A DNA stretch of 64,000 bases from Syntrophales bacterium (GCA_963666365.2 CAXXNF010000002.1:1120001-1184000), one strand, 5' to 3'. Shown: positions 3,291 to 64,000, numbered from the stretch's first letter. Made by a program: numbers and translations. Notes: a model not told the origin generated them from the letters alone.

Positions 3291-4621
3291 AACCGATTGT
3301 GGCAATAGTGGGCAGGCCGAACGTGGGTAAATCCACCCTTTTCAACCGCCTCTCCGATACCAAAAAAACAATCGTCATCGATCAGCCCGGGGCCACCCGC
3401 GATCGAAATTACGGAGATGCATACTGGAACGGCAGAGATTTTATAGTTATCGATACCGGTGGTTTTGAACCGGTTTCCAAGGAACAGATGCTCGTACAGA
3501 TGCGCCGTCAAACGAATCTTGCCATAGAAGAGGCCGATGCCATTATATTTCTTCTTGACGGCCGGGAAGGCCTGACACCGTCCGATACGGAAATAGCCCA
3601 TCTTCTGAGAAAAACAGAGAAGCCGGTTTTTTATGCCGTGAACAAGACCGACAATGCAGCACAGGAAGCGCAGGCCTACGATTTTTACCGCCTCGGGATC
3701 GATAAGCTCTATCCTGTATCTTCACAGCATGGTCTCGGCGTCGCGGACATGATGGATGACGTGGTGGCGGCGCTTCCGGAGCGGGACGAAACGGAAGAGG
3801 AACTGCCTACAGAGGAAAGAATAAGAATCGCCGTAATTGGAAAGCCGAATGTGGGCAAATCATCGCTCATCAACAAAATCCTCGGTTATGAACGGACGGT
3901 GGTCACCCCCATCCCCGGCACCACCAGGGATACCGTGGACACTCCTTTCGAGATGGGGGACAGGAAGTTTACCCTCATTGACACGGCGGGTATCAGGAAA
4001 AAAAGTAAAATCAGTCTCAAGCTGGAACAGTACAGCGTGGTGGAAGTCATGAAGACTCTGGACCGATGCGACATCGCGCTGATAATGATCGATGCCGGGG
4101 AGGGGGTGACCGATCAGGATACAAAGATTGCCGGTCTTGCCCATGAGCGCGGCGTAGCAAGCATTCTTATTATTAATAAGTGGGACCTGATAGAAAAGGA
4201 CAACACCACAATCGGCGCCTATGTACGGCATGTGAAAGACAGTCTCAAATATCTCGACTTTGCGCCGATTCTTTCCATTTCGGCACTCACGGGACAGCGG
4301 GTCCAGAAAATCTTCGACCTCGTGGAAAGGGTGTACGACCAGTACACCAAGCGAATCACCACGGCGCAGTTAAATCTCAAACTTGCCGAATTCGTGCAAC
4401 GTATGCCGCCTCCCCGATACCGACAGAGGGCCAACAGCCTTGTCTATGCAACACAGGCATCAATCAAGCCGCCTACGTTCATCATTTTTGCCAAGGAACC
4501 AAAGGCAATTCATTTTTCTTACGAGCGATATCTCATGAACAGACTGCGTGAAGAATGTTCCTTTGAGTACACGCCCCTTCGAATAAAATTCAGAAAAAAA
4601 GAAGGTAAGGAAAAAGGATAA
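3287..4621 (+). CDS. der: ribosome biogenesis GTPase Der (EngA)
   Basis: Two tandem G domains (GRPNVGKS, GKPNVGKS; DTGG, DTAG); ATGA overlap with era. Confidence 0.97.
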   Translation: MKPIVAIVGRPNVGKSTLFNRLSDTKKTIVIDQPGATRDRNYGDAYWNGRDFIVIDTGGFEPVSKEQMLVQMRRQTNLAIEEADAIIFLLDGREGLTPSDTEIAHLLRKTEKPVFYAVNKTDNAAQEAQAYDFYRLGIDKLYPVSSQHGLGVADMMDDVVAALPERDETEEELPTEERIRIAVIGKPNVGKSSLINKILGYERTVVTPIPGTTRDTVDTPFEMGDRKFTLIDTAGIRKKSKISLKLEQYSVVEVMKTLDRCDIALIMIDAGEGVTDQDTKIAGLAHERGVASILIINKWDLIEKDNTTIGAYVRHVKDSLKYLDFAPILSISALTGQRVQKIFDLVERVYDQYTKRITTAQLNLKLAEFVQRMPPPRYRQRANSLVYATQASIKPPTFIIFAKEPKAIHFSYERYLMNRLREECSFEYTPLRIKFRKKEGKEKG

Positions 4622-50743: not shown

Positions 50744-51025
50744 TGCCCTCTTCCTCGGCGCAATAACATAGGACAACATCATGCAAACCCCATATGCCCG
50801 TTCCCAAAGGTCAAATCACCAATTGCGGTTGCTCGTTAGGATACACAGCTCTCCACCACACAACATGGTTCTTACCCGTACCCCGCATGCAATTGGCCGA
50901 TTGTCCAATGTCAGCACTACGTGCATCAGTGCTGCCTGTGAATGTAACCTCGATTCCTCATGATATCAAGGAGAAAAAGCGTTCCTGTCGTGCTGTCAAT
51001 AATTATGCGCACTGTCCCCGACCTT

Positions 51026-51796
51026 AATTCCGGGGACAGTATACTTAATTCAGTGTTTCCCTTTCGGCCCCGGTTTTTGTTTCCGAACTACACGGTCAAT
51101 AACCTTCTCGACGTAATCAACAAATTGACTGCTTCCCAACGGCCTGCCTGTCCTCTCGTGTAAACGTAAGCGCTGCCCATCTTTATCTTGCACATCCAGC
51201 TTCAGGAACGAATGCCAGTCAGGTACAAGAGCAATTAACGGTTCAACTTTGATTAAATTGTCATCCTCTCCCCGTATGTGAGCACGAGCACTGCTCCACT
51301 TGTAATCCGCAGGCCTCGTCACAAGGCCCGCCCGAACGGGGTTCAACTCGATATATCGAGCAGCAGCAAGGAGATGCAGCTCGTCCATTGGGAAAGAAAA
51401 AAAGCGCTCCTGCCACAAGTGCCCGCGCCACTCGTGGCTGAAATTTATCATCCGCGTATATTGCCGGTGTGCTTCGCCAATCGCAAAGCGTAAGCTGTCA
51501 GACCGTGAGGGAACCGCAATGAGATGTACATGGTTCGGCATAAGACAGTATGCCCAGATTTCAACACTGTGCTGTGTGCATGACTGCCTCATAATGTTGA
51601 TATACTGCCGATAATCATTGTCAGAAAAAAAGTCTGCAGTCGCCGATTTCCCCGCTGAGTGATGTGATGGGGAACATCAGGAACAACAATCCGAGCCATT
51701 CGTCCCACTAATTCAGTGCGTCTCCTTTCAACTTCTGACTGTCAATAATTATGTATACTGTCCCCGGAATTTGGAAAGTATACTGTCCCCGGAATT
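51026..51796 (-). mobile_element. inverted-repeat-flanked HUH/Y1 (RAYT-like) transposase element, copy 1
   Basis: Inverted repeats at 51026-50 and 51747-71 (extra end copy 51777-96) enclose the transposase gene. Confidence 0.8.
51050..51708 (-). pseudogene. RAYT-like Y1 transposase, frameshifted
   Basis: 659 nt versus 660 nt in intact copies; one base missing next to the A7 run at about 51631 (AAAAAAAGTC vs AAAAAAATGTC). Confidence 0.85.
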
Positions 51797-51842
51797 AAGA
51801 CGAAATTACGAGCCCCCAGAATTACGCTGAATTATCCCGGAA

Positions 51843-52172
51843 TTACCCAGAATTATCGCCCCCAAAATTACTCTTATCTCGGGATTCACTTTCATCGGAA
51901 TATTCTCTTTTTTTAAACAATTCTTTCATGCATATTTTTAACGCACCTCCACCTATATTTGCTTTTGAAATAGCAGTTATCATGATAAGCAAGAAAAAAA
52001 ATATAGCAATTAATGGTATTGAAATATATTGAGGTAAGTAACTGCTTATAAAAATAATTAGTTTTCTGAATATCCAGACAATAAACCAAAAAGTAGGAAA
52101 TATAAGTAGTGCAACAAATACACCCGCTACAATTTTAACTATGCTGCTCAATTTTTCTTTTTTTGTGGGCAT
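51843..52172 (-). CDS. putative immunity protein for orphan toxin tip 2 (two TM helices)
   Basis: AT-rich small membrane ORF starting 8 nt after the orphan toxin stop; its 3' end runs into the AATTA tract. Confidence 0.65.
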   Translation of the reverse strand: MPTKKEKLSSIVKIVAGVFVALLIFPTFWFIVWIFRKLIIFISSYLPQYISIPLIAIFFFLLIMITAISKANIGGGALKICMKELFKKREYSDESESRDKSNFGGDNSG

Positions 52173-52180
52173 ATTATAAC

Positions 52181-52799
52181 CTATTTACAAGGAGATGATT
52201 TATTTTCATTGATATCTTCTTCGATTTTTTGAAAATAAAATAATAAAGGATCAAATGTTGTCCTTACTAATAAATCAGTCATACCTTGCCCAAGGCTGTT
52301 TGCTTTTACTTCCAAATAATCTCTTTCAGCATCAGAATATTCGTAGTGCCAGTCATACCAATTTGGTCCATGTTTTTTCCATTGCAGCCCCTCCGGATCC
52401 ACTCCGTTCACTGGATCGTTCATGCAGTATCCGTAGAGGTCGGTGCTGCCGCCGGCGAAGAGGATGGGGTCTTTGGCGGTCCAGCGGCCGGTGTCGGGAT
52501 CGTAGTCGCGGTGGCCGAATCTGATGAGGCTGGTGTCGCGGTCGTGGAGCCCCCCGGCAAAGCCGAAGGGAATCGCAAGTGTCGGGTTGCTGTCTGTGAT
52601 GATGGTGCCGAAACTGTCGTAGATGGTTTCTTTTACTATATTTCCGCTCTCGTCGGCAACTGTTTTGAGCGAGCCGACCTGATCATAGGCCAAATAGTAG
52701 GACCCGCCGCTTGTGGTCATGGCATAGGGCATTCTGCCGTCAGCATATTCAAAGCGCATGAGCAGGGCGTCGCTTCCATCATAGACGGCAAGCAGCCTG
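52181..52799 (-). pseudogene. orphan Rhs core fragment with alternative 67-aa C-terminal tip (cassette 2)
   Basis: About 0.41 kb nearly identical to 61390-61804; PVNGVDPEGL then unique QWKKHG...SSPCK; 5'-truncated at the repeat. Confidence 0.85.
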
Positions 52800-52828
52800 A
52801 TCTTAATTCCGGGGACAGTATACTTAAT

Positions 52829-53008
52829 TCAGTGTTTCCCTTTCGGCCCCGGTTTTTGTTTCCGAACTACACGGTCAATAACCTTCTCGACGTAATCAAC
52901 AAATTGACTGCTTCCCAACGGCCTGCCTGTCCTCTCGTGTAAACGTAAGCGCTGCCCATCTTTATCTTGCACATCCAGCTTCAGGAACGAATGCCAGTCA
53001 GGTACAAG
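52829..53008 (-). pseudogene. 3' part of RAYT-like transposase copy 2
   Basis: Encodes LVPDWHSFL...KPGPKGKH*, as in the other copies. Confidence 0.85.
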
Positions 53009-53135
53009 GTAAGCGTACGACCAACTCATATAGCAAAAGAATTTTACATGAAGTACGCTGTACCTAAAACCGGTACAGCCGGTGCTCTTTGATAATATGA
53101 TTACGGGATTCAACCGCCGGAATACGGTGCACTGA

Positions 53136-54746
53136 TTATTGTTTTCCCTGGATGATCAGGCCCCGTTCATCCCTGGGCACAGGCTTCCACTGATCGGGAA
53201 GCAGTTCCCGCAGGCGGTTTACGGGATGGCTCATGATCCGCCGAAGCATGTCGTCAAAGTACTCCCAGGGGTTGACGTCGCAGTTTTTGCAAGATTGAAC
53301 GAGACCCATATAAAGGGCCGCCGCCCGGCCGCCCCGTTCGCTGCCCACGAAGAGCCAGTTTTTTCGACCTACCGCTATGGGCCGAATGGCGTTTTCCGCC
53401 AGGTTGTTGTCGGGTCTTAACCGTCCGTCTTTCAGATAGCGGCAGAGCGCCTCCCGCTGATTCAGGGCGTAGTTGATGGCCGTCCGCAACGGCTCCGAGG
53501 GCGTCGTCCGGGGCCTCAGTTCCTCAATCTTTGCAAAGATTCCCTCAAGCAGCGGCGTTGCATGCGCCTGCCGGAAACGGCGCCGCTCCTCGGGCGTCAT
53601 CTCGGCACAGGGGGTCTCCACCTCGTGATAGAGCCGGGCGATGCGGGCAAGGATGTCCGTGGCCTCTTGAGGACGCGATGAAACCGCCTCGTCGAACTTC
53701 CGTCTGGTATGGGCCCAGCAACCCACTTCGATAATCTCTTCTTTTTTGAAAAGTTCGTCGTAGCCGCCGTAGGCGTCGGCATGGACGTACCCCTGGTAAT
53801 CATTGAGATACTCCAGTGGGCGCGTCTTGCTCCGATCAATGGAGAAGTCATAGGCCGTCAGCGGCGGTCCCGGACCGCCCCGCAGATAGACCCAGAGACG
53901 GGCCTTCTTTACCTTGCCGTTTCCCTTGACCTGCAGAGGAACGGGCGTATCGTCGGTAAAGAGCACGTCCCTCTCAAGGACGGCCTTTTGAAGCACTGTT
54001 TCCAAGGGACGAATGCTCTCATAGACCTGCATGAGCCAGCTGGTTTGGGTGGCCCGGGGAATGTCCACTCCTTCCCGCTCCAGAATGCTGTTCTGTCGGT
54101 AGAGAGGCAGATGATCGGCGTACTTGCTGACGATCAGATGAGAAAGCAGCCCCACGTCGGCTTTGCACTTGGCGATGGGGTGATCGGGCAGCGAGGCGGC
54201 GATGACGCCGGCGGTAGATTCCGATGCCTCCGGCAGCGCATACTGGGGCCGCTTGTAGACGTTGACGATCAGTCTCCCCGGCCGGTATTCCAGCTTCTCC
54301 GAGACTTCCACGGAAATGACCTTCAGGGGTGCGCCCGTGTCCGCATCGATCTTTTCATCCTCGGGCACGTCCAGCAGAATCTCCACCCGTTCGAGATGCT
54401 CCGGAATGGGAACCCGGCCGTGATGCCGGGAGGCCTTGCGGGGCTTCTTGACAGTCTCTGTGGCAGAAGCGTCTTCGAACTGTGCTTTCACCGCCGCATT
54501 CTGCTCTAATGATTGAAGCACCATGTCGTCGAACATCAGCTGACCGGGGTTGATCTTTTCGGACTTGCGGCCGTAGAGCCGTTTCAGCAGCTGTTCCATC
54601 TGATGCTGCAGGGTGGTCAACTGGCGCTGGGCGGATTCGAGCTTCTGGGTAAGCGCTTCGATCTGGGCATCCTTTTGGGCGGCAAATTCCAGAATCCAGG
54701 CAGCATCTTTTCGGTCGATAATCTCTTGTGCTTCCGTCAATATCAT
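53136..54746 (-). CDS. tnpC: IS66 DDE transposase TnpC
   Basis: LYGRKSEK, KYADHLPLYRQ, DDTP, CWAHTRRKF, DNNLAENAIR, GRKNWLF. Confidence 0.95.
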   Translation of the reverse strand: MILTEAQEIIDRKDAAWILEFAAQKDAQIEALTQKLESAQRQLTTLQHQMEQLLKRLYGRKSEKINPGQLMFDDMVLQSLEQNAAVKAQFEDASATETVKKPRKASRHHGRVPIPEHLERVEILLDVPEDEKIDADTGAPLKVISVEVSEKLEYRPGRLIVNVYKRPQYALPEASESTAGVIAASLPDHPIAKCKADVGLLSHLIVSKYADHLPLYRQNSILEREGVDIPRATQTSWLMQVYESIRPLETVLQKAVLERDVLFTDDTPVPLQVKGNGKVKKARLWVYLRGGPGPPLTAYDFSIDRSKTRPLEYLNDYQGYVHADAYGGYDELFKKEEIIEVGCWAHTRRKFDEAVSSRPQEATDILARIARLYHEVETPCAEMTPEERRRFRQAHATPLLEGIFAKIEELRPRTTPSEPLRTAINYALNQREALCRYLKDGRLRPDNNLAENAIRPIAVGRKNWLFVGSERGGRAAALYMGLVQSCKNCDVNPWEYFDDMLRRIMSHPVNRLRELLPDQWKPVPRDERGLIIQGKQ

Positions 54747-54798
54747 GAGCGGGCGTATAGCACATAACTATAATAATGTCAAGTGTTTATATTATTTT

Positions 54799-55140
54799 TT
54801 ATGCACATATTTTGTACCGTTTTCCCACTTTTTTCGGCACGATTCCCTCAAGGAGCATGGCCAGATCCCGGCGCTCGATATGACCGTCGCGGGACTGCCG
54901 GGAAGGCAGCACGAAGGACCCCTGCTCCAGACGTTTCAGCCAGATGGCCATGCCGTCGCTGTCCCAGTACAGGAGCTTCACCATGTTCCGCCGCCGGTTG
55001 ACGAAGACGAAGAGTGATCCCGAAAGGGGATCGGCGCTAAGTTCGGCGCGGACAATGCCGCACAGGCCGTCGAAGGACTTGCGCATGTCGCAGGGGCTGC
55101 GATAAAGATAGATGCGTGCCGATGCTGTCAGGCCGAACAT
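54799..55140 (-). CDS. tnpB: IS66 accessory protein TnpB
   Basis: DMRKSFDGL, LFVF.NRRR..VKLLYWD..G, KRLEQG.F. Confidence 0.95.
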   Translation of the reverse strand: MFGLTASARIYLYRSPCDMRKSFDGLCGIVRAELSADPLSGSLFVFVNRRRNMVKLLYWDSDGMAIWLKRLEQGSFVLPSRQSRDGHIERRDLAMLLEGIVPKKVGKRYKICA

Positions 55141-55439
55141 GGGGAACCATTATGAAGCGTTTCAATAACGGTGCGCAGGGTAACGGGATCGAAGCCGCGT
55201 TCCACTTCGATGGAAAGAAGCGGCCCCATGCAAATGCGAATGCCGGCATAGTCGGCCGTCGAGGATGCAAGTTCGATAAATCCCTGTTGTCCTTGCGGTT
55301 CAGTGAGTTTCCGGCGCCAGGAGTAGAAACTTGCCGTATTGATCTGATGCATCTGGCACCAGGCCAGACCGCTCATCCCGCTTGCGATCTGCCGCTCTAC
55401 GATGGCCGACCAGTGGGCGGTGCGTTCTTGTTGTGTCAT
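55128..55439 (-). CDS. tnpA: IS66 accessory protein TnpA
   Basis: W..IV..Q.ASG.S..AWC, FYSWRRKL; start set at MTQQER. Confidence 0.88.
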   Translation of the reverse strand: MTQQERTAHWSAIVERQIASGMSGLAWCQMHQINTASFYSWRRKLTEPQGQQGFIELASSTADYAGIRICMGPLLSIEVERGFDPVTLRTVIETLHNGSPCSA

Positions 55440-55529
55440 AGGGCATCCTCCAATCATGAAATGTGTTCATGACGGGAAGCTATAATCCAATGTGCGTTCA
55501 AGCGAAAGATGAGTTGGTCGTACGGTTAC

Positions 55530-56017
55530 GGTACAAGAGCAATTAACGGTTCAACTTTGATTAAATTGTCATCCTCTCCCCGTATGTGAGCACGAGCACT
55601 GCTCCACTTGTAATCCTCAGGCCTCGTCACAAGGCCCGCTCGAACGGGGTTCAACTCGATATATCGAGCAGCAGCAAGGAGATGCAGCTCGTCCATTGGG
55701 AAAGAAAAAAAACGCTCCTGCCACAAGTGCCCGCGCCACTCGTGGCTGAAATTTATCATCCGCGTATATTGCCGGTGTGCTTCGCCAATCGCAAAGCGTA
55801 AGCTGTCAGACCGTGAGGGAACCGCAATGAGATGTACATGGTTCGGCATAAGACAGTATGCCCAGATTTCAACACTGTGCTGTGTGCATGACTGCCTCAT
55901 AATGTTGATATACTGCCGATAATCATTGTCAGAAAAAAATGTCTGCAGTCGCCGATTTCCCCGCTGAGTGATGTGATGGGGAACATCAGGAACAACAACC
56001 CGAGCCATCCGTCCCAC
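55530..56017 (-). pseudogene. 5' part of RAYT-like transposase copy 2 (truncated by IS66)
   Basis: MGRMARVVVP...HVH...YIELNP...PLIALVP, then a stop supplied by the IS66 end. Confidence 0.85.
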
Positions 56018-56137
56018 TAATTCAGTGCGTCTCCTTTCAACTTCTGACTGTCAATAATTATGTATACTGTCCCCGAAATTTGATGGCGCCGAATAATTAT
56101 GTATACTGTCCCCGAAATTTCTGTCCCCGGAATTCTA

Positions 56138-56488
56138 TTAAAACCTTTTCTTTCTGTAAAAAAATATAAAAAAAATTCTAATGGGCCAAGCCAAGAAAAC
56201 CGCAATAAAAACGAAAATCGCGCTGATGTTTGGTATGGCTTTAATAAAGAATGAAGCCGCACCGTTAAGAAGAGTCAAGGTGGCCATCAAAAAGCATATA
56301 GCCGCTGCCAACCGATCCCCCATGTTTAAAATTTTTTTTTCTTTGAGATCAGGAAAGAAGAAATGGTCTATATCGAATCTATTTTTTATGATTTTTCCTT
56401 TGTTGTGCCAAATTCCTTCTATAAACATTAAACCGATCATAATCATAATAAAAGCAAGGATGGTGTTAATAGCTATAGGCGATGTCAT
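56138..56488 (-). CDS. putative immunity protein for orphan toxin tip 1 (three TM helices)
   Basis: AT-rich membrane ORF directly after the orphan toxin stop; its stop codon is 3 nt from a repeat end. Confidence 0.7.
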   Translation of the reverse strand: MTSPIAINTILAFIMIMIGLMFIEGIWHNKGKIIKNRFDIDHFFFPDLKEKKILNMGDRLAAAICFLMATLTLLNGAASFFIKAIPNISAIFVFIAVFLAWPIRIFFIFFYRKKRF

Positions 56489-56495
56489 ACCACTC

Positions 56496-58112
56496 TCACT
56501 TTCCACACGGCGATGATGAAGTCCTTATTGGTGTTGTAAAGTTAACTGGTAAACCTAACCCCAAGCCCAAACCAACTGAAACTCCATCGATATATTTTAA
56601 GGGATCATACCATGCTTTATTAGGATCAAACTCATTCCTTAAGGTGATCTGAGCACCACCATATCTGCCTGAACCAATCGCAATCGTTGACCCAGCTTGG
56701 TTACCTGTTCCACTTAAATCTGAGACACCCGCTGAAACACCAATATCTGCCCACACACCAGCCACGGCCTCAGGTTTTGGATCTGTCGCTACTAAATGAC
56801 CTGATGCATCTAAACTTGTTAGCTGTGAACCTACCGTGCCTCCAACTGCAACGGGCCAAGGGCCAGTCGGAGCATGAACACCAGCGTTATAAGAAAACAT
56901 CCATCGCCCCTCCGGATCCACTCCGTTCAACGGATCGTTCATGCAGTATTCGTATAGGTCGGTGTCGCCGCCGGCGAAGAAGATGGGGTCTTTGGCGGTC
57001 CAGCGGCCGGTGTCGGGATCGTAGTCGCGGTGGCCGAATCTGATGAGGCTGGTGTCGCGGTCATGGAGCCCCCCGGCAAAGCCGAAGGGAATCGCAAGTG
57101 TCGGGTTGCTGTCTGTGATGATGGTGCCGAAGCTGTCGTAGATGGTTTCTTTTACTATATTTCCGCTCTCGTCGGCAACTGTTTTGAGCGAGCCGACCTG
57201 ATCATAGGCCAAATAGTAGGACCCGCCGCTTGTGGTCATGGCATAGGGCATTCTGCCGTCAGCATATTCAAAGCGCATGAGCAGGGCGTCGCTTCCATCA
57301 TAGACGGCAAGCAGCCTGGTCAATCCGAGCCAGAGGTATTTTTCGATGATGACGCCATTGACTGCTTTGGCGATCCTTCGCCCCAGCGGATCATGAACGT
57401 AATCGATGGCGGTGCCGTCGGGAAGCGTGACGCCCATAAGTTCTCCCCGGCTGGAGTAGTCGTAGGTGGTGGTGTTTCCCGAACCATCTGTTCTGGTAGT
57501 CAGAAAGCCGTCCACGCTATACTGATAGGAAGTGTCCCCGACCGTCAGAAGGTGATCCTCGTCGGAGTAGGCGTAACTCCTGCCCGCAATCCCCCTCAGA
57601 CTGTTCATCTCATAGACCCTGACGCCGCTGAGATCATACTGGTATTCTTCCACCAAATTCCCGTTTTCATGCACTGTGCACAGCCGACCTGCGCAATCGT
57701 AACCATAATCGTAGGAGTTTGTTTCACCGCCGATGGTTTCCGTTTTTTCGATGATTCTCCCGTTGCTGTCCCGAACGGCGTGCCAGCCGGCTACCGGTTG
57801 GGAGGCAATGCTGCAGGTTTCCTCTTCTAATTCGCCATAGCCGTTATAGCTTCTCTCCACTGACAGATTGCCGTCAGCAACAGATTCGGGAAGACCGTTG
57901 CCGCTATTTCTGGCAATGGAGAATCGTCCCGCACCGGTAAGCAGACGATCCCTGTCATAGGAATATTCTTCCCTGTCGCCGGCATAGGCAACCCCAACAA
58001 GATTGAAGTCGCTATTGTAGGAGAAGCCGAGCGACTGCGCAATCGTACCGCTGTGATGCGCTTCGGTGACCAGTGTTCCGTCGTAGCTGTAGTCGATTGT
58101 CTCCGTGCCGCT
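56496..58112 (-). pseudogene. orphan Rhs core fragment with alternative 135-aa C-terminal tip (cassette 1)
   Basis: About 1.2 kb colinear and nearly identical with 61390-62598 (offset 4486); DPEGR then unique WMFSYN...SSSPCGK; frame is open to the repeat but has no native start. Confidence 0.88.
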
Positions 58113-58117
58113 AGGGG

Positions 58118-58291
58118 AATTCCGGGGACAGTATACTTAATTACTGACAGCCGGTAATTAAAAGACTGGCAGACCGTTGGGAAGCAATCAGTTTACAGAT
58201 AATGTTGAAAAACTGTTTGACCGTATGGTTCGCAGACAGAAGCCTTGGCCGAAAGGAAAAAATCTGAATTAAGTATACTGTCCCCGGAATT
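58118..58291 (+). mobile_element. 174-bp non-autonomous miniature derivative of the HUH element
   Basis: Perfect 25-bp terminal inverted repeats; interior is a diverged element leader fused to the diverged transposase 3' end (TGRPLGSNQFTDNVEKLFDRMVRRQKPWPKGK). Confidence 0.85.
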
Positions 58292-58492
58292 TGAATTATG
58301 TCGCTGGTCCAGTTTTGCCGGACCGGTTCCTCTTGAACAATTGTTGCCTTTGGGCAACAGTTTTTACTTTTGATTTGGTGAATTCCAGGGGCAGTAAATA
58401 AGTATGCTGTCCCCGGAATTAGCATAAATATGATTTGATAACAAGAGATTGAAAGGGGGATAGGAAGAAGTGCGATTTCTGGTGCGGTCACT

Positions 58493-58915
58493 TCATTGCC
58501 TTTTTATGAGCCATTCACCTCCCCGTTTGTACAGAATGAGGGGATTGTCCGATTGGTGTGTATTACCATATACTCTTACCCATCCTTCCGAGGGACATGA
58601 CCCCGCCCAGTATGTACGGATCGTATATTTACATTTTCCTTGACTCCCCTGGCTTTCCGTGGGTTTGACGCATTTGGTGCTTTTTGCCGGGACATACAGG
58701 TCGATGGGATTTCCCCACGTGCAATCGCCTATTCCGGATCCGCTTCCGCAAGGACTTCCACCGGAATCGACGCATATATATACGTGCCACCCTTTGCTCT
58801 CCGTATTTTTGATACAGATACCCGCCGATACGGTAGTAACCGACAGGAGTAAGATGATCAAAGGAATGGCCATATACCCGGTTATTATTCTTAATATTGG
58901 CGCGATCTTCATCAT
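58493..58915 (-). CDS. Cys-rich secreted hypothetical protein
   Basis: SD AAGGAGG, signal peptide ending VSA, 7 Cys in the mature part. Confidence 0.7.
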   Translation of the reverse strand: MMKIAPILRIITGYMAIPLIILLLSVTTVSAGICIKNTESKGWHVYICVDSGGSPCGSGSGIGDCTWGNPIDLYVPAKSTKCVKPTESQGSQGKCKYTIRTYWAGSCPSEGWVRVYGNTHQSDNPLILYKRGGEWLIKRQ

Positions 58916-59020
58916 TGATATCCCTCCTTTATTGGAAAATTAACCTTATTCCATCTTCCCCCTTTCTGTAAGTAATGTCCTTCTGAGAAGGTAATGTCAA
59001 GATAATTTTGACTATTTTGG

Positions 59021-59832
59021 AATTCCGGGGACAGTATACTTATTGGAATTCCGGGGACAGTATACTTAATTCAGTGTTTCCCTTTCGGCCCCGGTTTTTG
59101 TTTCCGAACTACACGGTCAATAACCTTCTCGACGTAATCAACAAATTGACTGCTTCCCAACGGCCTGCCTGTCCTCTCGTGTAAACGTAAGCGCTGCCCA
59201 TCTTTATCTTGCACATCCAGCTTCAGGAACGAATGCCAGTCAGGTACAAGAGCAATTAACGGTTCAACTTTGATTAAATTGTCATCCTCTCCCCGTATGT
59301 GAGCACGAGCACTGCTCCACTTGTAATCCGCAGGCCTCGTCACAAGGCCCGCCCGAACGGGGTTCAACTCGATATATCGAGCAGCAGCAAGGAGATGCAG
59401 CTCGTCCATTGGGAAAGAAAAAAAGCGCTCCTGCCACAAGTGCCCGCGCCACTCGTGGCTGAAATTTATCATCCGCGTATATTGCCGGTGTGCTTCGCCA
59501 ATCGCAAAGCGTAAGCTGTCAGACCGTGAGGGAACCGCAATGAGATGTACATGGTTCGGCATAAGACAGTATGCCCAGATTTCAACACTGTGCTGTGTGC
59601 ATGACTGCCTCATAATGTTGATATACTGCCGATAATCATTGTCAGAAAAAAATGTCTGCAGTCGCCGATTTCCCCGCTGAGTGATGTGATGGGGAACATC
59701 AGGAACAACAACCCGAGCCATCCGTCCCACTAATTCAGCGCGTCTCCTTTCAACTTCTGACTGTCAATAATTATGTATACTGTCCCCGAAATTTGATGGC
59801 GCCGAATAATTATGTATACTGTCCCCGAAATT
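59021..59832 (-). mobile_element. HUH/Y1 transposase element, copy 3
   Basis: Doubled repeats on both sides (59021-42, 59047-71; 59766-94, 59805-32). Confidence 0.82.
59071..59730 (-). CDS. RAYT-like Y1 (HUH) transposase, intact
   Basis: HHITQRGNRR, YCLMPNHVH (HUH), LWQERF, YIELNPVRA (catalytic Tyr), YKWSS. Confidence 0.92.
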   Translation of the reverse strand: MGRMARVVVPDVPHHITQRGNRRLQTFFSDNDYRQYINIMRQSCTQHSVEIWAYCLMPNHVHLIAVPSRSDSLRFAIGEAHRQYTRMINFSHEWRGHLWQERFFSFPMDELHLLAAARYIELNPVRAGLVTRPADYKWSSARAHIRGEDDNLIKVEPLIALVPDWHSFLKLDVQDKDGQRLRLHERTGRPLGSSQFVDYVEKVIDRVVRKQKPGPKGKH

Positions 59833-59837
59833 ACGCC

Positions 59838-60612
59838 CAGTATACTTAATTCAGTGTTTCCCTTTCGGCCCCGGTTTTTGTTTCCGAACTACACGGTCAA
59901 TAACCTTCTCGACGTAATCAACAAATTGACTGCTTCCCAACGGCCTGCCTGTCCTCTCGTGTAAACGTAAGCGCTGCCCATCTTTATCTTGCACATCCAG
60001 CTTCAGGAACGAATGCCAGTCAGGTACAAGAGCAATTAACGGTTCAACTTTGATTAAATTGTCATCCTCTCCCCGTATGTGAGCACGAGCACTGCTCCAC
60101 TTGTAATCCTCAGGCCTCGTCACAAGGCCCGCTCGAACGGGGTTCAACTCGATATATCGAGCAGCAGCAAGGAGATGCAGCTCGTCCATTGGGAAAGAAA
60201 AAAAACTCTCCTGCCACAAGTGCCCGCGCCACTCGTGGCTGAAATTTATCATCCGCGTATATTGCCGGTGTGCTTCGCCAATCGCAAAGCGTAAGCTGTC
60301 AGACCGTGAGGGAACCGCAATGAGATGTACATGGTTCGGCATAAGACAGTATGCCCAGATTTCAACACTGTGCTGTGTGCATGACTGCCTCATAATGTTG
60401 ATATACTGCCGATAATCATTGTCAGAAAAAAATGTCTGCAGTCGCCGATTTCCCCGCTGAGTGATGTGATGGGGAACATCAGGAACAACAACCCGAGCCA
60501 TCCGTCCCACTAATTCAGTGCGTCTCCTTTCAACTTCTGACTGTCAATAATTATGTATACTGTCCCCGAAATTTGATGGCGCCGAATAATTATGTATACT
60601 GTCCCCGAAATT
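59838..60612 (-). mobile_element. HUH/Y1 transposase element, copy 4 (tandem, downstream repeat truncated)
   Basis: 780-bp period relative to copy 3; only CAGTATACTTAATT of the downstream repeat remains. Confidence 0.8.
59851..60510 (-). CDS. RAYT-like Y1 (HUH) transposase, full length with WQERF>WQESF change
   Basis: 219 aa; differs from copy 3 by R>S and A>E. Confidence 0.9.
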   Translation of the reverse strand: MGRMARVVVPDVPHHITQRGNRRLQTFFSDNDYRQYINIMRQSCTQHSVEIWAYCLMPNHVHLIAVPSRSDSLRFAIGEAHRQYTRMINFSHEWRGHLWQESFFSFPMDELHLLAAARYIELNPVRAGLVTRPEDYKWSSARAHIRGEDDNLIKVEPLIALVPDWHSFLKLDVQDKDGQRLRLHERTGRPLGSSQFVDYVEKVIDRVVRKQKPGPKGKH

Positions 60613-60623
60613 ACGCCAGGATG

Positions 60624-60971
60624 TTATTGGAGCCTGTTTGTTGTTTTTATTATCCCCATTTTCATCAAAATATACATAAAAACAAAAAAGGTGGGCACAA
60701 AACTGCAAAGATAATAAGATCCTAATTTTTTCATTAGGCTTATATCTTCGACAAAAAACCATATAATCTTAACTGGAAACCAAATTGCAGCAAATCCAAA
60801 TAAAACAGGAAGAGCAATCCTCCATAATATGTCAAATCCATACAACCAAAAATTTCTTTGTCTTTTTTCAACAACAATATATTTTTTAAATTTATTTACA
60901 TAGACGAGCAAGGCGCTAACTCCTAAAGCCACCAGTATTGCAAAAAGACATACAATGATTTTAGCTGCCAT
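60624..60971 (-). CDS. putative cognate immunity protein of the main Rhs toxin (three TM helices)
   Basis: AT-rich membrane ORF 19 nt downstream of the toxin stop. Confidence 0.7.
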   Translation of the reverse strand: MAAKIIVCLFAILVALGVSALLVYVNKFKKYIVVEKRQRNFWLYGFDILWRIALPVLFGFAAIWFPVKIIWFFVEDISLMKKLGSYYLCSFVPTFFVFMYILMKMGIIKTTNRLQ

Positions 60972-60990
60972 AATTATATCTCACAATCAT

Positions 60991-63900
60991 TTAATAGTTA
61001 GCATTAGCATGAAGTGTCGTTGACACCCCTCCAGCTATAGCGCCACTGAAAAAGGCAGCATCAACAGCTACTGTTCCCCCTTTGAGCATAGCCGTGCCAG
61101 CACCTCCCCCAATAGCACCAGCTAATGCATTAATTGCAACAGAAAGTGTGTCAATATGACCGCACGGCTTTGAAATTTTTTGTCCAATTAGATCCGATGT
61201 TACTCCAACACCTGCCCCTATTGCCGCATTCACTAGAACAGATGAGCCAAACGATATTCCCGCCAAAGCTCCAACAGCGGCACCCATGAAAGCCCCTTTG
61301 ATAATACTTTCTCTCTTGAAAATTGCATCGGCAGTTCCAATTGCGGCACCCACAGCGGCACCAACTCCGGCAGCGGCCAAATTTATAAACAACCCCTCCG
61401 GATCCACTCCGTTCACTGGATCGTTCATGCAGTATCCGTAGAGGTCGGTGCTGCCGCCGGCGAAGAGGATGGGGTCTTTGGCGGTCCAGCGGCCGGTGTC
61501 GGGATCGTAGTCGCGGTGGCCGAATCTGATGAGGCTGGTGTCGCGGTCGTGGAGCCCCCCGGCAAAGCCGAAGGGAATCGCAAGTGTCGGGTTGCTGTCT
61601 GTGATGATGGTGCCGAAGCTGTCGTAGATGGTTTCTTTTACTATATTTCCGCTCTCGTCGGCAACTGTTTTGAGCGAGCCGACCTGATCATAGGCCAAAT
61701 AGTAGGACCCGCCGCTTGTGGTCATGGCATAGGGCATTCTGCCGTCAGCATATTCAAAGCGCATGAGCAGGGCGTCGCTTCCATCATAGACGGCAAGCAG
61801 CTTGGTCAATCCGAGCCAGAGGTATTTTTCGATGATGACGCCATTGACTGCTTTGGCGATCCTTCGCCCCAGCGGATCATGAACGTAATCGATGGCGGTG
61901 CCGTCGGGAAGCGTGACGCCCATAAGTTCTCCCCGGCTGGAGTAGTCGTAGGTGGTGGTGTTTCCCGAACCATCTGTTCTGGTAGTCAGAAAGCCGTCCA
62001 CGCTATACTGATAGGAAGTGTCCCCGACCGTCAGAAGATGATCCTCGTCGGAGTAGGCGTAACTCCTGCCCGCAATCCCCCTCAGACTGTTCATCTCATA
62101 GACCCTGACGCCGCTGAGATCATACTGGTATTCTTCCACCAAATTCCCGTTTCCATGCACTGTGCACAGCCGACCTGCGCAATCGTAACCATAATCGTAG
62201 GAGTTTGTTTCACCGCCGATGGTTTCCGTTTTTTCGATGATTCTCCCGTTGCTGTCCCGAACGGCGTGCCAGCCGGCTACCGGTTGGGAGGCAATGCTGC
62301 AGGTTTCCTCTTCTAATTCGCCATAGCCGTTATAGCTTCTCTCCACTGACAGATTGCCGTCAGCAACAGATTCGGGAAGACCGTTGCCGCTATTTCTTGC
62401 AATGGAGAATCGTCCCGCACCGGTAAGCAGACGATCCCTGTCATAGGAATATTCTTCCCTGTCGCCGGCATAGGCAACCCCAACAAGATTGAAGTCGCTG
62501 TTGTAGGAGAAGCCGAGCGACTGCGCAATCGTACCGCTGTGATGCGCTTCGGTGACCAGTGTTCCGTCGTAGCTGTAGTCGATTGCCTCCGTGCCGCTGG
62601 TAACGGATGCCACCTTTGTGCCGCACAGATAGGTATAGTGTATGCTTCCTTCCGGTGTAAGAACCTGCGTGAGCCGTGCGCCATCGTAGATATGTTCAAT
62701 CCGGTTTCCCGAGGGGAATGTGGTGCAGATAAGGCGCCGGTCTTTGTCATAGAGATAGCGATACGCCCCGCTGACAGGCGCCTGATAGAGCGAAAGATTG
62801 TTGACCCTGTTATAGTCGAAGATATGGCTGACGGAGGCGGGCGTCACAAGGGTTTCACGATTTCCATTTGCATCATAGCCGAAGTAAAGAACGCTATCGT
62901 CCGGCCGATAGAGGGCCGTCATCCGCCCTGCCGGGTCATAGTCATAGGTAGTGGTGAAACCCTGCGGATCGGTCCAGGAAGAGCAAAATCCTTCACCGTT
63001 GTAACTCCAGGTCATCTGCCGTGTTCCCTGTGTCAGAGATGTAAGCCTTTCTCGTCCATCGTAGCCGTAGAAGGTGTCAAAAAGACCGGGGACGCTGCTG
63101 CTTGTGATAAGAAGGGTTGCCGAGTCGTAGGCAGTGTTCGCGGTCCTTCCCTCCGGCGAGATTGCCGTCTTTTGTGACTGAATGACATCCTTTTCTAGAA
63201 CCGCAGCATTGCCGTTAACATTGACGGTTTCGGTAATCAGATCGAAAATCCCGTCGCTGTCGGTGTCTGCATACGATTTGCTCCGTTCGGTCGTCCGCTC
63301 CAACCCCGAGGGAGTGCGTTCCGTCATGGTCGTTATGTAAGGGTATTTATACTGCGGGTCCGTATCGTAGGTAAAGGCAAGATTCATTCCGCAGGACAGT
63401 GTCTTCTTTACCGAAAGACCGTCGGCCGATCGATTGAACAGAGTGGCGCTCCCGGTAGGATCAGTAATAATGGACGCGTATGCCCCTGTTGAATCAGTCC
63501 TATCCAGATAGGATGTCCTATTGCCTTCCGCCGTGAGAACATTGACAAGAACGGCCCCGTTTTCAAGGAGGGCTCGTTCATAATTCCAGCATCCGCCTTC
63601 TTCATCGAGTGCATCGGTAAGTCGACCGGTTGAATCGAAGAGGTGATCGAATCTGTTTCCCGACGGTTCCGTCTCGACGAGCAAAAGCCCCTCGGGCGTG
63701 TAATCAAAGGTGTAAACGGCGCCATCGGGACCTGTAACACCGGTAAGATGGTTGTGCTCATCTATAGTCAACGTGGTAATCAGCCCGTCGGAGGAGACAA
63801 TGGCCGTGGGAATGCCGTCTCCATCGCGTTGCAGTGCAACGACAGCGCCGAAACGGTCATAAATGGCAGTCAGGTTATTATTATCGTCGTATTCGAATCG

Positions 63901-63999
63901 GTACAGCATCACCCCAGTATCGGGATCTATTGTTTGTGTATGCAACCCCGCAGCGGACATAATATAGGCCATGCCGTCATTATCGACAAACACAAGGTC
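60991..63999 (-). CDS. YD-repeat/Rhs toxin, teneurin-like; N-terminus beyond the window; 132-aa Gly/Ala-rich C-terminal tip
   Basis: Many YD repeats; Rhs-associated core FGFAGGLHD...RDYDPDTGRWTAKDP; PVNGVDPEGL cleavage motif. Confidence 0.92.
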   Translation of the reverse strand, partial: DLVFVDNDGMAYIMSAAGLHTQTIDPDTGVMLYRFEYDDNNNLTAIYDRFGAVVALQRDGDGIPTAIVSSDGLITTLTIDEHNHLTGVTGPDGAVYTFDYTPEGLLLVETEPSGNRFDHLFDSTGRLTDALDEEGGCWNYERALLENGAVLVNVLTAEGNRTSYLDRTDSTGAYASIITDPTGSATLFNRSADGLSVKKTLSCGMNLAFTYDTDPQYKYPYITTMTERTPSGLERTTERSKSYADTDSDGIFDLITETVNVNGNAAVLEKDVIQSQKTAISPEGRTANTAYDSATLLITSSSVPGLFDTFYGYDGRERLTSLTQGTRQMTWSYNGEGFCSSWTDPQGFTTTYDYDPAGRMTALYRPDDSVLYFGYDANGNRETLVTPASVSHIFDYNRVNNLSLYQAPVSGAYRYLYDKDRRLICTTFPSGNRIEHIYDGARLTQVLTPEGSIHYTYLCGTKVASVTSGTEAIDYSYDGTLVTEAHHSGTIAQSLGFSYNSDFNLVGVAYAGDREEYSYDRDRLLTGAGRFSIARNSGNGLPESVADGNLSVERSYNGYGELEEETCSIASQPVAGWHAVRDSNGRIIEKTETIGGETNSYDYGYDCAGRLCTVHGNGNLVEEYQYDLSGVRVYEMNSLRGIAGRSYAYSDEDHLLTVGDTSYQYSVDGFLTTRTDGSGNTTTYDYSSRGELMGVTLPDGTAIDYVHDPLGRRIAKAVNGVIIEKYLWLGLTKLLAVYDGSDALLMRFEYADGRMPYAMTTSGGSYYLAYDQVGSLKTVADESGNIVKETIYDSFGTIITDSNPTLAIPFGFAGGLHDRDTSLIRFGHRDYDPDTGRWTAKDPILFAGGSTDLYGYCMNDPVNGVDPEGLFINLAAAGVGAAVGAAIGTADAIFKRESIIKGAFMGAAVGALAGISFGSSVLVNAAIGAGVGVTSDLIGQKISKPCGHIDTLSVAINALAGAIGGGAGTAMLKGGTVAVDAAFFSGAIAGGVSTTLHANANY

Positions 64000-64000
64000 G

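Follow-up and report, generated by a model that had tools for sequence, protein, structure and literature searches.

The Rhs elements of E. coli carry downstream of the tip an insertion sequence (IS), H-rpt, of the ISAs1 family and with a DDE-type transposase, and IS have long been known as components of that position; we know of no report in which H-rpt ends coincide base-exactly with orphan breakpoints. Arrays of Rhs orphans are said to have been traced to C-terminal displacement by Jackson et al. in 2009. Poole 2011 (PMC3150448), Koskiniemi 2014 (PMC3967940) and Zhang 2012 (PMC3482391) are further sources on arrays of this kind. TIRtrons and their TIRYT enzymes, with the motif GGGGWSAS, were reported by Di Nocera, De Gregorio & Rocco 2013 (PMC3733652), and correspond approximately to TnpA-Y1 subclass 2.1 of Quentin et al. 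2018 (bioRxiv 10.1101/279083). Here we analyzed a 64,000-nt stretch of a Syntrophales bacterium (GCA_963666365.2, CAXXNF010000002.1:1120001-1184000; hereafter the window, on contig C2 of genome G000, which totals 4.0 Mb in two contigs of 1.5 and 2.5 Mb at 52% G+C). Its positions 50998-64000 hold the 3' half of an Rhs/teneurin-like toxin gene with its immunity gene, two orphan tips with theirs and a small gene for a secreted-looking protein, together with four copies of one 0.75-kb TIRtron (two intact), one mini-element and extra element ends. TIRtrons, Rhs orphan arrays and IS in Rhs loci are each already known; here the TIRtron ends coincide with the boundaries of the Rhs cassettes, and Rhs is absent from the cited passages of the two TIRtron papers.

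The locus resembles the C-terminal-displacement arrays in that remnants truncated at their 5' side, with new tips and immunity genes, come after a full-length gene, in that DPxGL marks the end of homology and in that tips are presumably replaced by recombination in the core. It differs from them in that the 5' edge of each remnant is here the end of a Y1 transposon, and in that each immunity gene is again followed by the element. E. coli H-rpt likewise places an IS downstream of the tip, with a DDE-type enzyme in that case and a Y1 enzyme in this one. We read the locus as one of the C-terminal displacement kind whose cassette boundaries were made by an IS-like TIRtron, through insertion and recombination between its copies, and we give this reading an even chance of being right; the TIRtron family may help build or move spare toxin tips. 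The features, obtained by open reading frame (ORF) calls, a Pfam search and a search of the window for repeat families and inverted pairs, are as follows, read from the right.

60991-64000+, minus strand: main Rhs/teneurin-like toxin gene, 3' half (Pfam TEN_YD-shell, 2.4e-42; RHS_repeat, 2.4e-32).
60624-60971, minus strand: putative immunity gene of the main tip, 115 aa, directly after the toxin ORF; no Pfam family.
59838-60612, minus strand: TIRtron copy 4, with an intact 219-aa TIRYT gene at 59851-60510 (Y1_Tnp, 3.3e-14); 99% identical to copy 3.
59047-59832, minus strand: TIRtron copy 3, with an intact TIRYT gene at 59071-59730 (Y1_Tnp, 5.4e-14; H60-V-H62, Tyr119).
59021-59045, plus strand: extra solo end repeat abutting copy 3 (repeat search).
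58493-58915, minus strand: small Cys-rich ORF, 140 aa, with a signal-peptide-like start, between outward-facing repeats.
58396-58420, minus strand: solo end repeat (repeat search).
58118-58291, no strand assigned: mini-element M1, 174 bp, with perfect 25-nt inverted ends (pair I17, 100%).
56496-58112, minus strand: orphan 1, core remnant 56907-58112 and a distinct Gly-rich tip; ORF from the first start codon, 56496-57860.
56138-56506, minus strand: putative immunity gene 1, 122 aa, its stop codon 3 nt from a partial repeat head at 56121-56134.
55530-56134, minus strand: TIRtron copy 2, upstream part, with the 5' part of the gene, repeats at 56056-56080 and 56095-56119, and the 14-nt partial head at 56121-56134.
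53009-55529, minus strand: IS66-family element, 2521 bp, within copy 2 (tnpA 55128-55457, tnpB 54799-55140, tnpC 53136-54746; Pfam).
52805-53008, minus strand: TIRtron copy 2, downstream part, with the 3' end of the gene and the downstream repeat.
52181-52802, minus strand: orphan 2, core remnant 52385-52802 and a 68-aa tip after VDPEGL; ORF 52181-52759.
51843-52172, minus strand: putative immunity gene 2, 109 aa (by ORF position).
51026-51796, minus strand: TIRtron copy 1, with a frameshifted gene and upstream repeats at 51747-51771 and 51772-51796.
50998-51026, no strand assigned: degenerate repeat copy facing copy 1 (family D6, 79%).

Evidence for the reading lies at the joints between elements and cores. 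The core remnant of orphan 1 (1206 nt) is 98.8% identical to positions 61393-62598 of the main gene and stops 5 nt from the outer, low-coordinate end of M1, and that of orphan 2 (418 nt) is 99% identical to positions 61390-61807 and stops 2 nt from the outer end of copy 2, or up to 8 nt when its last mismatched bases are discounted. The immunity stop codons, for their part, sit 3, 11 and 46 nt from the upstream end of the next element, and the far side of each element is the preceding immunity gene, not the missing 5' core. Elements or their ends alternate with cassettes in a single orientation throughout, and directly repeated element copies flank both orphan cassettes. A preliminary description of this DNA, made by a model from the sequence, had set out the same order on the minus strand, which we found as given apart from the IS66 that splits copy 2, which it had missed. 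Its cargo blocks between outward-facing ends are seen in the repeat map, its RAYT-like HUH Y1 gene with inverted repeats carrying GGGGWSAS was recovered by Pfam (Y1_Tnp) and by the repeat search, and its placing of orphan breakpoints at repeats holds for both orphans here and for four further genomes.

That the array is an assembly artefact, a mis-join of repeats, is very improbable. Such an error could be suspected in a region with four 0.75-kb repeats and three near-identical core segments, where short-read contigs break. Against it stand the assembly of the genome in just two contigs, the unique flanks at every junction and the contigs of public sequencing runs (X4, X6, X7 and X1; Logan for X4), which we compared over 55400-59070. 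Contigs of X4 tile this interval with 0-2 differing letters per listed piece and none in 6/8; the exception, a piece with 5 differences, is the mini-element part of a 5.4-kb contig and most likely represents the upstream copy M2. The same sequence, with the junction of element 2 and immunity gene 1, is found in run X6 of another study. No listed contig bridges 58099-58166, and contigs cannot establish the long-range order; uncovered parts in X6, X7 and X1 carry no weight. Apart from one X4 joint described below, the contig joints that were seen can be put down to the main locus (56119 to 56907) or to other repeat copies, and a skip in X7 from 56082 to 58271 has only 21 letters on one side.

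The succession of an element's downstream end, a truncated core and a different tip recurs in four further genomes with other Y1 elements. They emerged from a search in which Rhs core-end matches were crossed with Y1-protein matches in 41 relatives, and from the fetched loci that were inspected; one is a metagenome-assembled genome (MAG).

G038, from another family of the order: TIRtron, 46% identical; gap 2-3 nt; 65-nt remnant, then a different tip and an immunity gene.
G413: TIRtron; gap 8 nt; remnant of ~60 nt.
G312: Y1 of a 325-aa class with its own inverted repeats; gap of at most 8 nt; core-end match.
Planctomycetia MAG (L014): TIRtron, 59% identical; gap 6 nt; remnant of 136 nt.

In L014, a mini repeat pair also lies 36 nt before the previous remnant, and in this MAG (G436; loci L014, L289 and L290) a Y1 gene or a mini-element/repeat pair lies at most 2.5 kb from every one of the five orphan core ends; no full-length Rhs partner was found in it with that core-end query, and the MAG may be incomplete. 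On L119, a metagenome contig of 5.6 kb, the exact 25-mer of the window stands in frame between two Rhs fragments; partial repeat heads follow the preceding immunity gene directly, and past the immunity gene of the orphan comes a different TIRtron. No close homologue of the element was found in G001, a genome of the same genus (best E 9e-34). In G002, G003 and G008, the Rhs orthologues (62-64% identity) each matched the core end once, and the contigs that carry them had no Y1 match. Separately, the second orphan of G038 (L206, G038:C14, 7187-11666) is an 87-93% copy of the main tip, immunity gene and following spacer, and looks like a classical displacement event beside the TIRtron-bounded one.

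Y1 elements might instead have inserted into short spacers between an immunity gene and a pre-existing remnant, in dispensable, IS-collecting DNA, without any part in the making or moving of cassettes, an explanation that we consider unlikely. It has to accommodate six junctions, in the window and the four genomes, with gaps of 2-8 nt and remnants ranging from 60 to 1206 nt, at none of which (0/6) the missing 5' core piece lies beyond the element. In its favor are the IS66 in the window and a second orphan-bearing locus on C1 of the same genome (L001; C1:724001-743900), where IS4-, IS21-, IS66- and IS5-like genes separate a main gene of 1906 aa from an orphan of 789 aa. Two Y1 elements accompany these: a different TIRtron (3826-4594; repeat AAAAGGGGACAGATTTATTTATT) ends 15 nt after the orphan stop codon, leaving no obvious immunity gene in those 15 nt, and a third Y1 gene, truncated to residues 1-66, is fused ~20 nt upstream of the orphan. 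Also in favor of such a passive sink, constant-remnant arrays without Y1 between the cassettes exist, namely three arrays (5, 5 and 3 orphans) in G014 and the uniform 136-142-aa remnants, of the classical kind, in G169.

To place these junctions against a wider background, we compared the 125-aa core end with 401 genomes of the phylum, 123 of which matched; the matches listed (150, with 175 further ones outside) formed 111 clusters, and 80 of these were fetched with 5-kb flanks, amounting to 0.71 Mb from genomes that include related ones and hence are not independent. A profile of the TIRYT alignment detected Y1 genes or fragments at 8/80 Rhs loci, with 11 hits in the 0.71 Mb. With the same profile, the 401 genomes gave at least 983 matches, or at least ~0.7 per Mb, a lower bound since at most 7 candidates per genome were scored, from which ~0.5 hits would be expected in 0.71 Mb, perhaps 2 if many matches went unscored. 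At all eight loci, Y1 was co-oriented with rhs, which may partly stem from a bias shared relative to replication, and was placed after a core end or between cassettes. As a control, seven DDE transposase proteins of this genome matched 2/80 loci, and when 414 non-overlapping ORFs of these loci, 110-700 aa long, were tallied by Pfam family, Y1_Tnp was the sole transposase family in the three top-25 lists (4 members, in the first batch; single-member families may be hidden below the top 25). Together, these results show that Y1 elements settle downstream of Rhs tips beyond chance in the sample examined. The excess over background, the co-orientation at 8/8 loci and the lack of any other transposase family in the tallies all speak against passive collection.

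Base-level inspection covered four of these loci (L230, L264, L222 and L271), and an exact junction between element end and core was present in 2/8 Y1-bearing loci (L230 and L264). L222 is without a core remnant after the element, and L271, from G169, has a classical RAYT with GTAG-type REPs between orphans, more than 600 nt from the core boundary. In L215, L223 and L227, Y1 fragments follow the last core end, and in L280, the Y1 gene runs into the contig end.

If insertion and copy-copy recombination made the boundaries, a TIRtron would have landed in or beside rhs DNA, and directly repeated 0.75-kb copies would then have recombined, giving deletion, duplication and possibly circle excision and trimming the cores, with the 780-nt tandem of copies 3 and 4 as one candidate product. 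The outcome would be portable blocks of element, core remnant, tip and immunity gene. A block circle excised by copy-copy recombination could re-enter the expressed gene via its core remnant; the main gene would thereby gain the tip of the block, and its former tip would come to lie behind the element, exactly the order seen. Stored tips would enter the expressed gene as they do in other Rhs loci, through ordinary homologous recombination of the core remnant with the main core.

Several observations weigh against this account. The gaps between copy 2 and its neighbors are only 3 nt and 2-8 nt, and plain insertion into a very short spacer is possible. M1 and M2 are 86% alike and the core remnants 99% like the main core, and the history was therefore not one simple duplication. 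Only one element copy is now present in 4/5 junction-bearing genomes, such that copy-copy recombination there would require a second copy that has been lost. No supported circle, excision joint, recombination product or deletion variant was found in the contigs of X4, X6, X7 and X1 over 55400-59070, and one X4 contig of depth 7, in which 56906 and 59021 are joined on opposite strands with a short side of 31 letters, is unexplained and has no counterpart in the assembly. The survey rests on 80/111 clusters, drawn from the matches listed, and the downstream position of Y1 in it is partly trivial, given that the rhs gene itself fills the 5 kb before a core end.

The element encodes a TIRYT, a RAYT-like Y1 enzyme of the HUH type, and its gene lies between inverted repeats of 25 nt (AATTCCGGGGACAGTATACTTAATT), in which GGGGACAG fits the GGGGWSAS motif reported by Di Nocera et al. 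2013; it is thus a TIRtron, a known kind. The repeat arms of each copy are 96-100% complementary over the 25 nt (pairs I17, I19 and I22), and the upstream end carries a repeat doublet with 39-nt spacing. In the 219-aa TIRYT product, H60 and Y119 are invariant and H62 is present in at least 90% of 26 aligned homologues, the Tyr lying within RYIELNP; ~95 residues follow the Y1 domain, in which Pfam at E<=0.01 gave no helix-turn-helix family; subclass 2.1 is characterized by a C-terminal helix-turn-helix extension resembling DnaA_C, HTH_23 or HTH_28. Apart from the Y1 gene with HUH and Tyr and the terminal inverted repeats, the element shares with TIRtrons the dispersal of repeats as singles, dimers and groups, here at 33 sites outside the locus. 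It departs from those descriptions in the clustering of four near-identical gene copies at one locus, along with mini-elements. TIRYT homologues number more than 8000, the closest coming from Desulfobulbaceae and other Thermodesulfobacteriota MAGs, and a partial homologue (P0029) is 92% identical on a 3.8-kb contig. At least 123 metagenome stretches (loci L084-L205), drawn from many samples, contain the exact 25-mer when two degenerate positions are allowed; the Y1 proteins next to it are only 43-69% identical to that of the window, and conservation is thus far stronger in the repeat than in the gene. A RAYT/REPIN system was rejected as the class of the element, in view of its four gene copies and a repeat without a GTAG-tagged hairpin.

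Among other HUH elements, IS200/IS605 have subterminal hairpins without inverted repeats and act on single strands, and IS91/ISCR have one-ended Y2 rolling-circle HUH enzymes able to carry flanking DNA; we know of neither having been found to carry Rhs tips. The element shares with both HUH chemistry on single strands; its terminal 25-nt inverted repeats set it apart from IS200/IS605.

The ends themselves look as if they had been worked on more than once. Copies 3 and 4 form a 780-nt tandem duplicate with a non-homologous junction at which GAAATTACGCC is followed directly by CAGTATAC; copy 4 has upstream-end repeats at 60549-60573 and 60588-60612 and a low-coordinate (downstream) repeat without its outer 11 nt, broken between GGGGA and CAGTATAC at the edge of a short palindrome. 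Partial repeat heads of 12-14 nt (AATTCCGGGGACAG) adjoin full repeats at 56121-56134 of the window and elsewhere in the genome at C1:200267-200311, C1:399382 and C2:1216534, and some dispersed copies form inverted doublets. The doublets and triplets, the partial heads and the break in copy 4 hint, at the level of sequence, at repeated cutting and joining at one repeat position.

Such traces would also fit active mobilization, in which the Y1 enzyme moves blocks of element, core remnant, tip and immunity gene as single-stranded DNA and inserts them beside resident repeats, either as a composite, with the upstream end paired to the downstream end of the next copy, or by one-ended capture, reading past the element's own downstream end; this would make the element an integron-like or ISCR-like cassette vehicle, which we regard as a tentative possibility. 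In its favor, junctions lie at element ends at the nucleotide level in five genomes, with differing Y1 subfamilies and Rhs families; cassette and element together measure 1.3-2.7 kb; the doublets and triplets, 14-nt partial heads and the break at copies 3/4 resemble repeated cutting and joining; the five orphan core ends of the Planctomycetia MAG lie near Y1 genes or mini-elements with no full-length partner found; and Y1 is the sole transposase family in the top-25 tallies around Rhs loci. Against it, no identical block was found at two different sites, and in this genome no second site of any element-cassette unit was found; the contigs examined hold no circle or excision joint; the exact junction is confined to 2/8 Y1-bearing survey loci; 76/78 close homologues have no Rhs within 10 kb; the Planctomycetia MAG may simply be missing its main gene; and the passages of Di Nocera et al. 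2013 (PMC3733652) contain no experimental TIRYT chemistry. The broader proposal, that RAYT-like Y1 elements are vehicles for Rhs tips in several phyla, with the HUH enzyme mobilizing a block as single-stranded DNA and depositing it beside resident repeats downstream of another rhs, where the remnant would let the tip recombine in, is in our estimate doubtful.

We then considered how closely the element is tied to this locus and to Rhs DNA in general. All full-length copies in the genome (4/4) lie here, at 99-100% identity, and when repeats were counted by their 19-nt head with at most 3 mismatches, 17/60 genome copies fell inside the 16.9-kb locus. The other 43 heads occupy 33 sites outside the locus, 24 single and 9 in pairs or clusters, of which 2/33 lie within 3 kb of one of the seven other Rhs loci, with 0.71 expected, a difference that is not significant and that favors a passive sink in that solo repeats are not enriched near other Rhs loci. 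The genome also holds further, diverged Y1 genes. As separate observations, one solo repeat (L003:3446; C1:27446) lies ~440 nt upstream of another full-length Rhs gene, and one (L004:7561; C2:1675561) lies ~1.25 kb downstream of the immunity ORF of another Rhs gene. Among close TIRYT homologues from other species (52-66% identity), Rhs-like DNA was present within 10 kb in 2/78 loci (963 kb), and among the exact-repeat metagenome loci in 5/122 (469 kb; L085, L133, L119, L139 and L149, of which L085 and L133 look alike). The element family is therefore not dedicated to Rhs, and a family-wide Rhs link was rejected on these counts.

The locus resembles integrons as a one-orientation array of promoterless cassettes, with a repeated site between them, next to an expressed position. 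It differs in having no IntI tyrosine recombinase and no attI or attC, in a repeat that belongs to an HUH transposon, and in that entry of a cassette into the expressed gene would here need homologous recombination; a phage-integrase domain was found in 0/16 region ORFs tested with Pfam. The preliminary description had proposed an integron-like machine for capturing and shuffling tips, which is unproven given the 2/78 homologue loci near Rhs, the Y1-free orphan arrays of G014 and the lack of a supported circle or excision joint, in addition to the missing integrase and att-type site. It had also mentioned a link between such elements and rhs genes, which Di Nocera et al. 2013 does not confirm: 'rhs' occurs 0 times there, and Quentin et al. 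2018 was not searched for the term.

The remaining anatomy of the locus agrees with an Rhs polymorphic toxin, in that a YD shell, a DPxGL core end, a variable tip, downstream immunity genes (by position) and 5'-truncated orphans are all present. The main gene encodes ~2092 aa as a whole and extends 3.3 kb beyond the window, to window-equivalent 67269; its protein has a signal peptide, TTR and NHL domains (Pfam TTR_TEN1-4 and TEN_NHL) and the YD shell, and ends in a Gly-zipper-like tip that begins after VDPEGL. The three tips diverge past the conserved VDPEG, and the homology of all three copies stops at the VDPEG codons. The three presumed immunity proteins, to which position alone assigns that function, are all small, hydrophobic and membrane-like by eye. 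A second mini-element, M2, lies at window-equivalent 67641-67835, ~370 nt upstream of the main Rhs start; farther upstream (L002:3864-5822, window-equivalent 67864-69822) come an ORF of 492 aa that matches no Pfam family and a pilin-like gene whose product has the methylation motif at its N terminus.

Copies of AATTCCGGGGAC with at most 1 mismatch number 17 in the window against 0.59 expected (0/100 shuffles gave 17), and 16/17 fall within 51026-60612. In copy 1, residues 19-219 and 1-29 match in separate frames, and with this frameshift and the split of copy 2 by IS66, two of the four element copies are intact. The IS66 has the tnpA, tnpB and tnpC genes, inverted ends (GTAAGCGTACG) and an 8-bp target duplication, GGTACAAG, at 53001-53008 and 55530-55537 that belong to its family, and is a simple later insertion into copy 2. 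An IS66 is present at L001:8514-10850 too, with TnpB and TnpC Pfam scores equal to those of the window IS66, from which the element looks recently active in both orphan regions.

The Cys-rich ORF has no Pfam family, and the Atlas clusters that it matched are all unnamed. In sediment metagenome run X1, its region (58296-59041) is found with 1-4 differences per contig beside repeat copies, and no contig covers orphan 1; the gene may be a separate cassette with repeats on its flanks. A 116-aa ORF at 58141-58491 was rejected as a gene, since it overlaps the mini-element and is without a family.

In the literature searched, with subscription journals outside its scope and several sources represented by part of their text, we found neither a base-exact, recurrent coincidence of Y1 ends with core remnants across two phyla nor a predominance of Y1 among the mobile neighbors of Rhs tips; one preprint (bioRxiv 10.1101/2024.07.17.603846) covers RAYT and rhs, each separately. 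The acquisition and storage of tips in polymorphic-toxin loci are today explained by homologous recombination only, and the base-exact recurrent junction ties the widespread TIRYT/TIRtron elements to the origin of truncated Rhs cassettes. With its defined ends, two intact gene copies and three cassettes, the locus offers a testable system. If the link is only passive, TIRtron-type elements are still the commonest mobile neighbors of Rhs tips in the phylum sample, shaping arrays by deletion and duplication; if Y1 elements do act as vehicles, they would provide a transposon-driven supply line for polymorphic toxins, and this would be the first biological role assigned to TIRYT enzymes.

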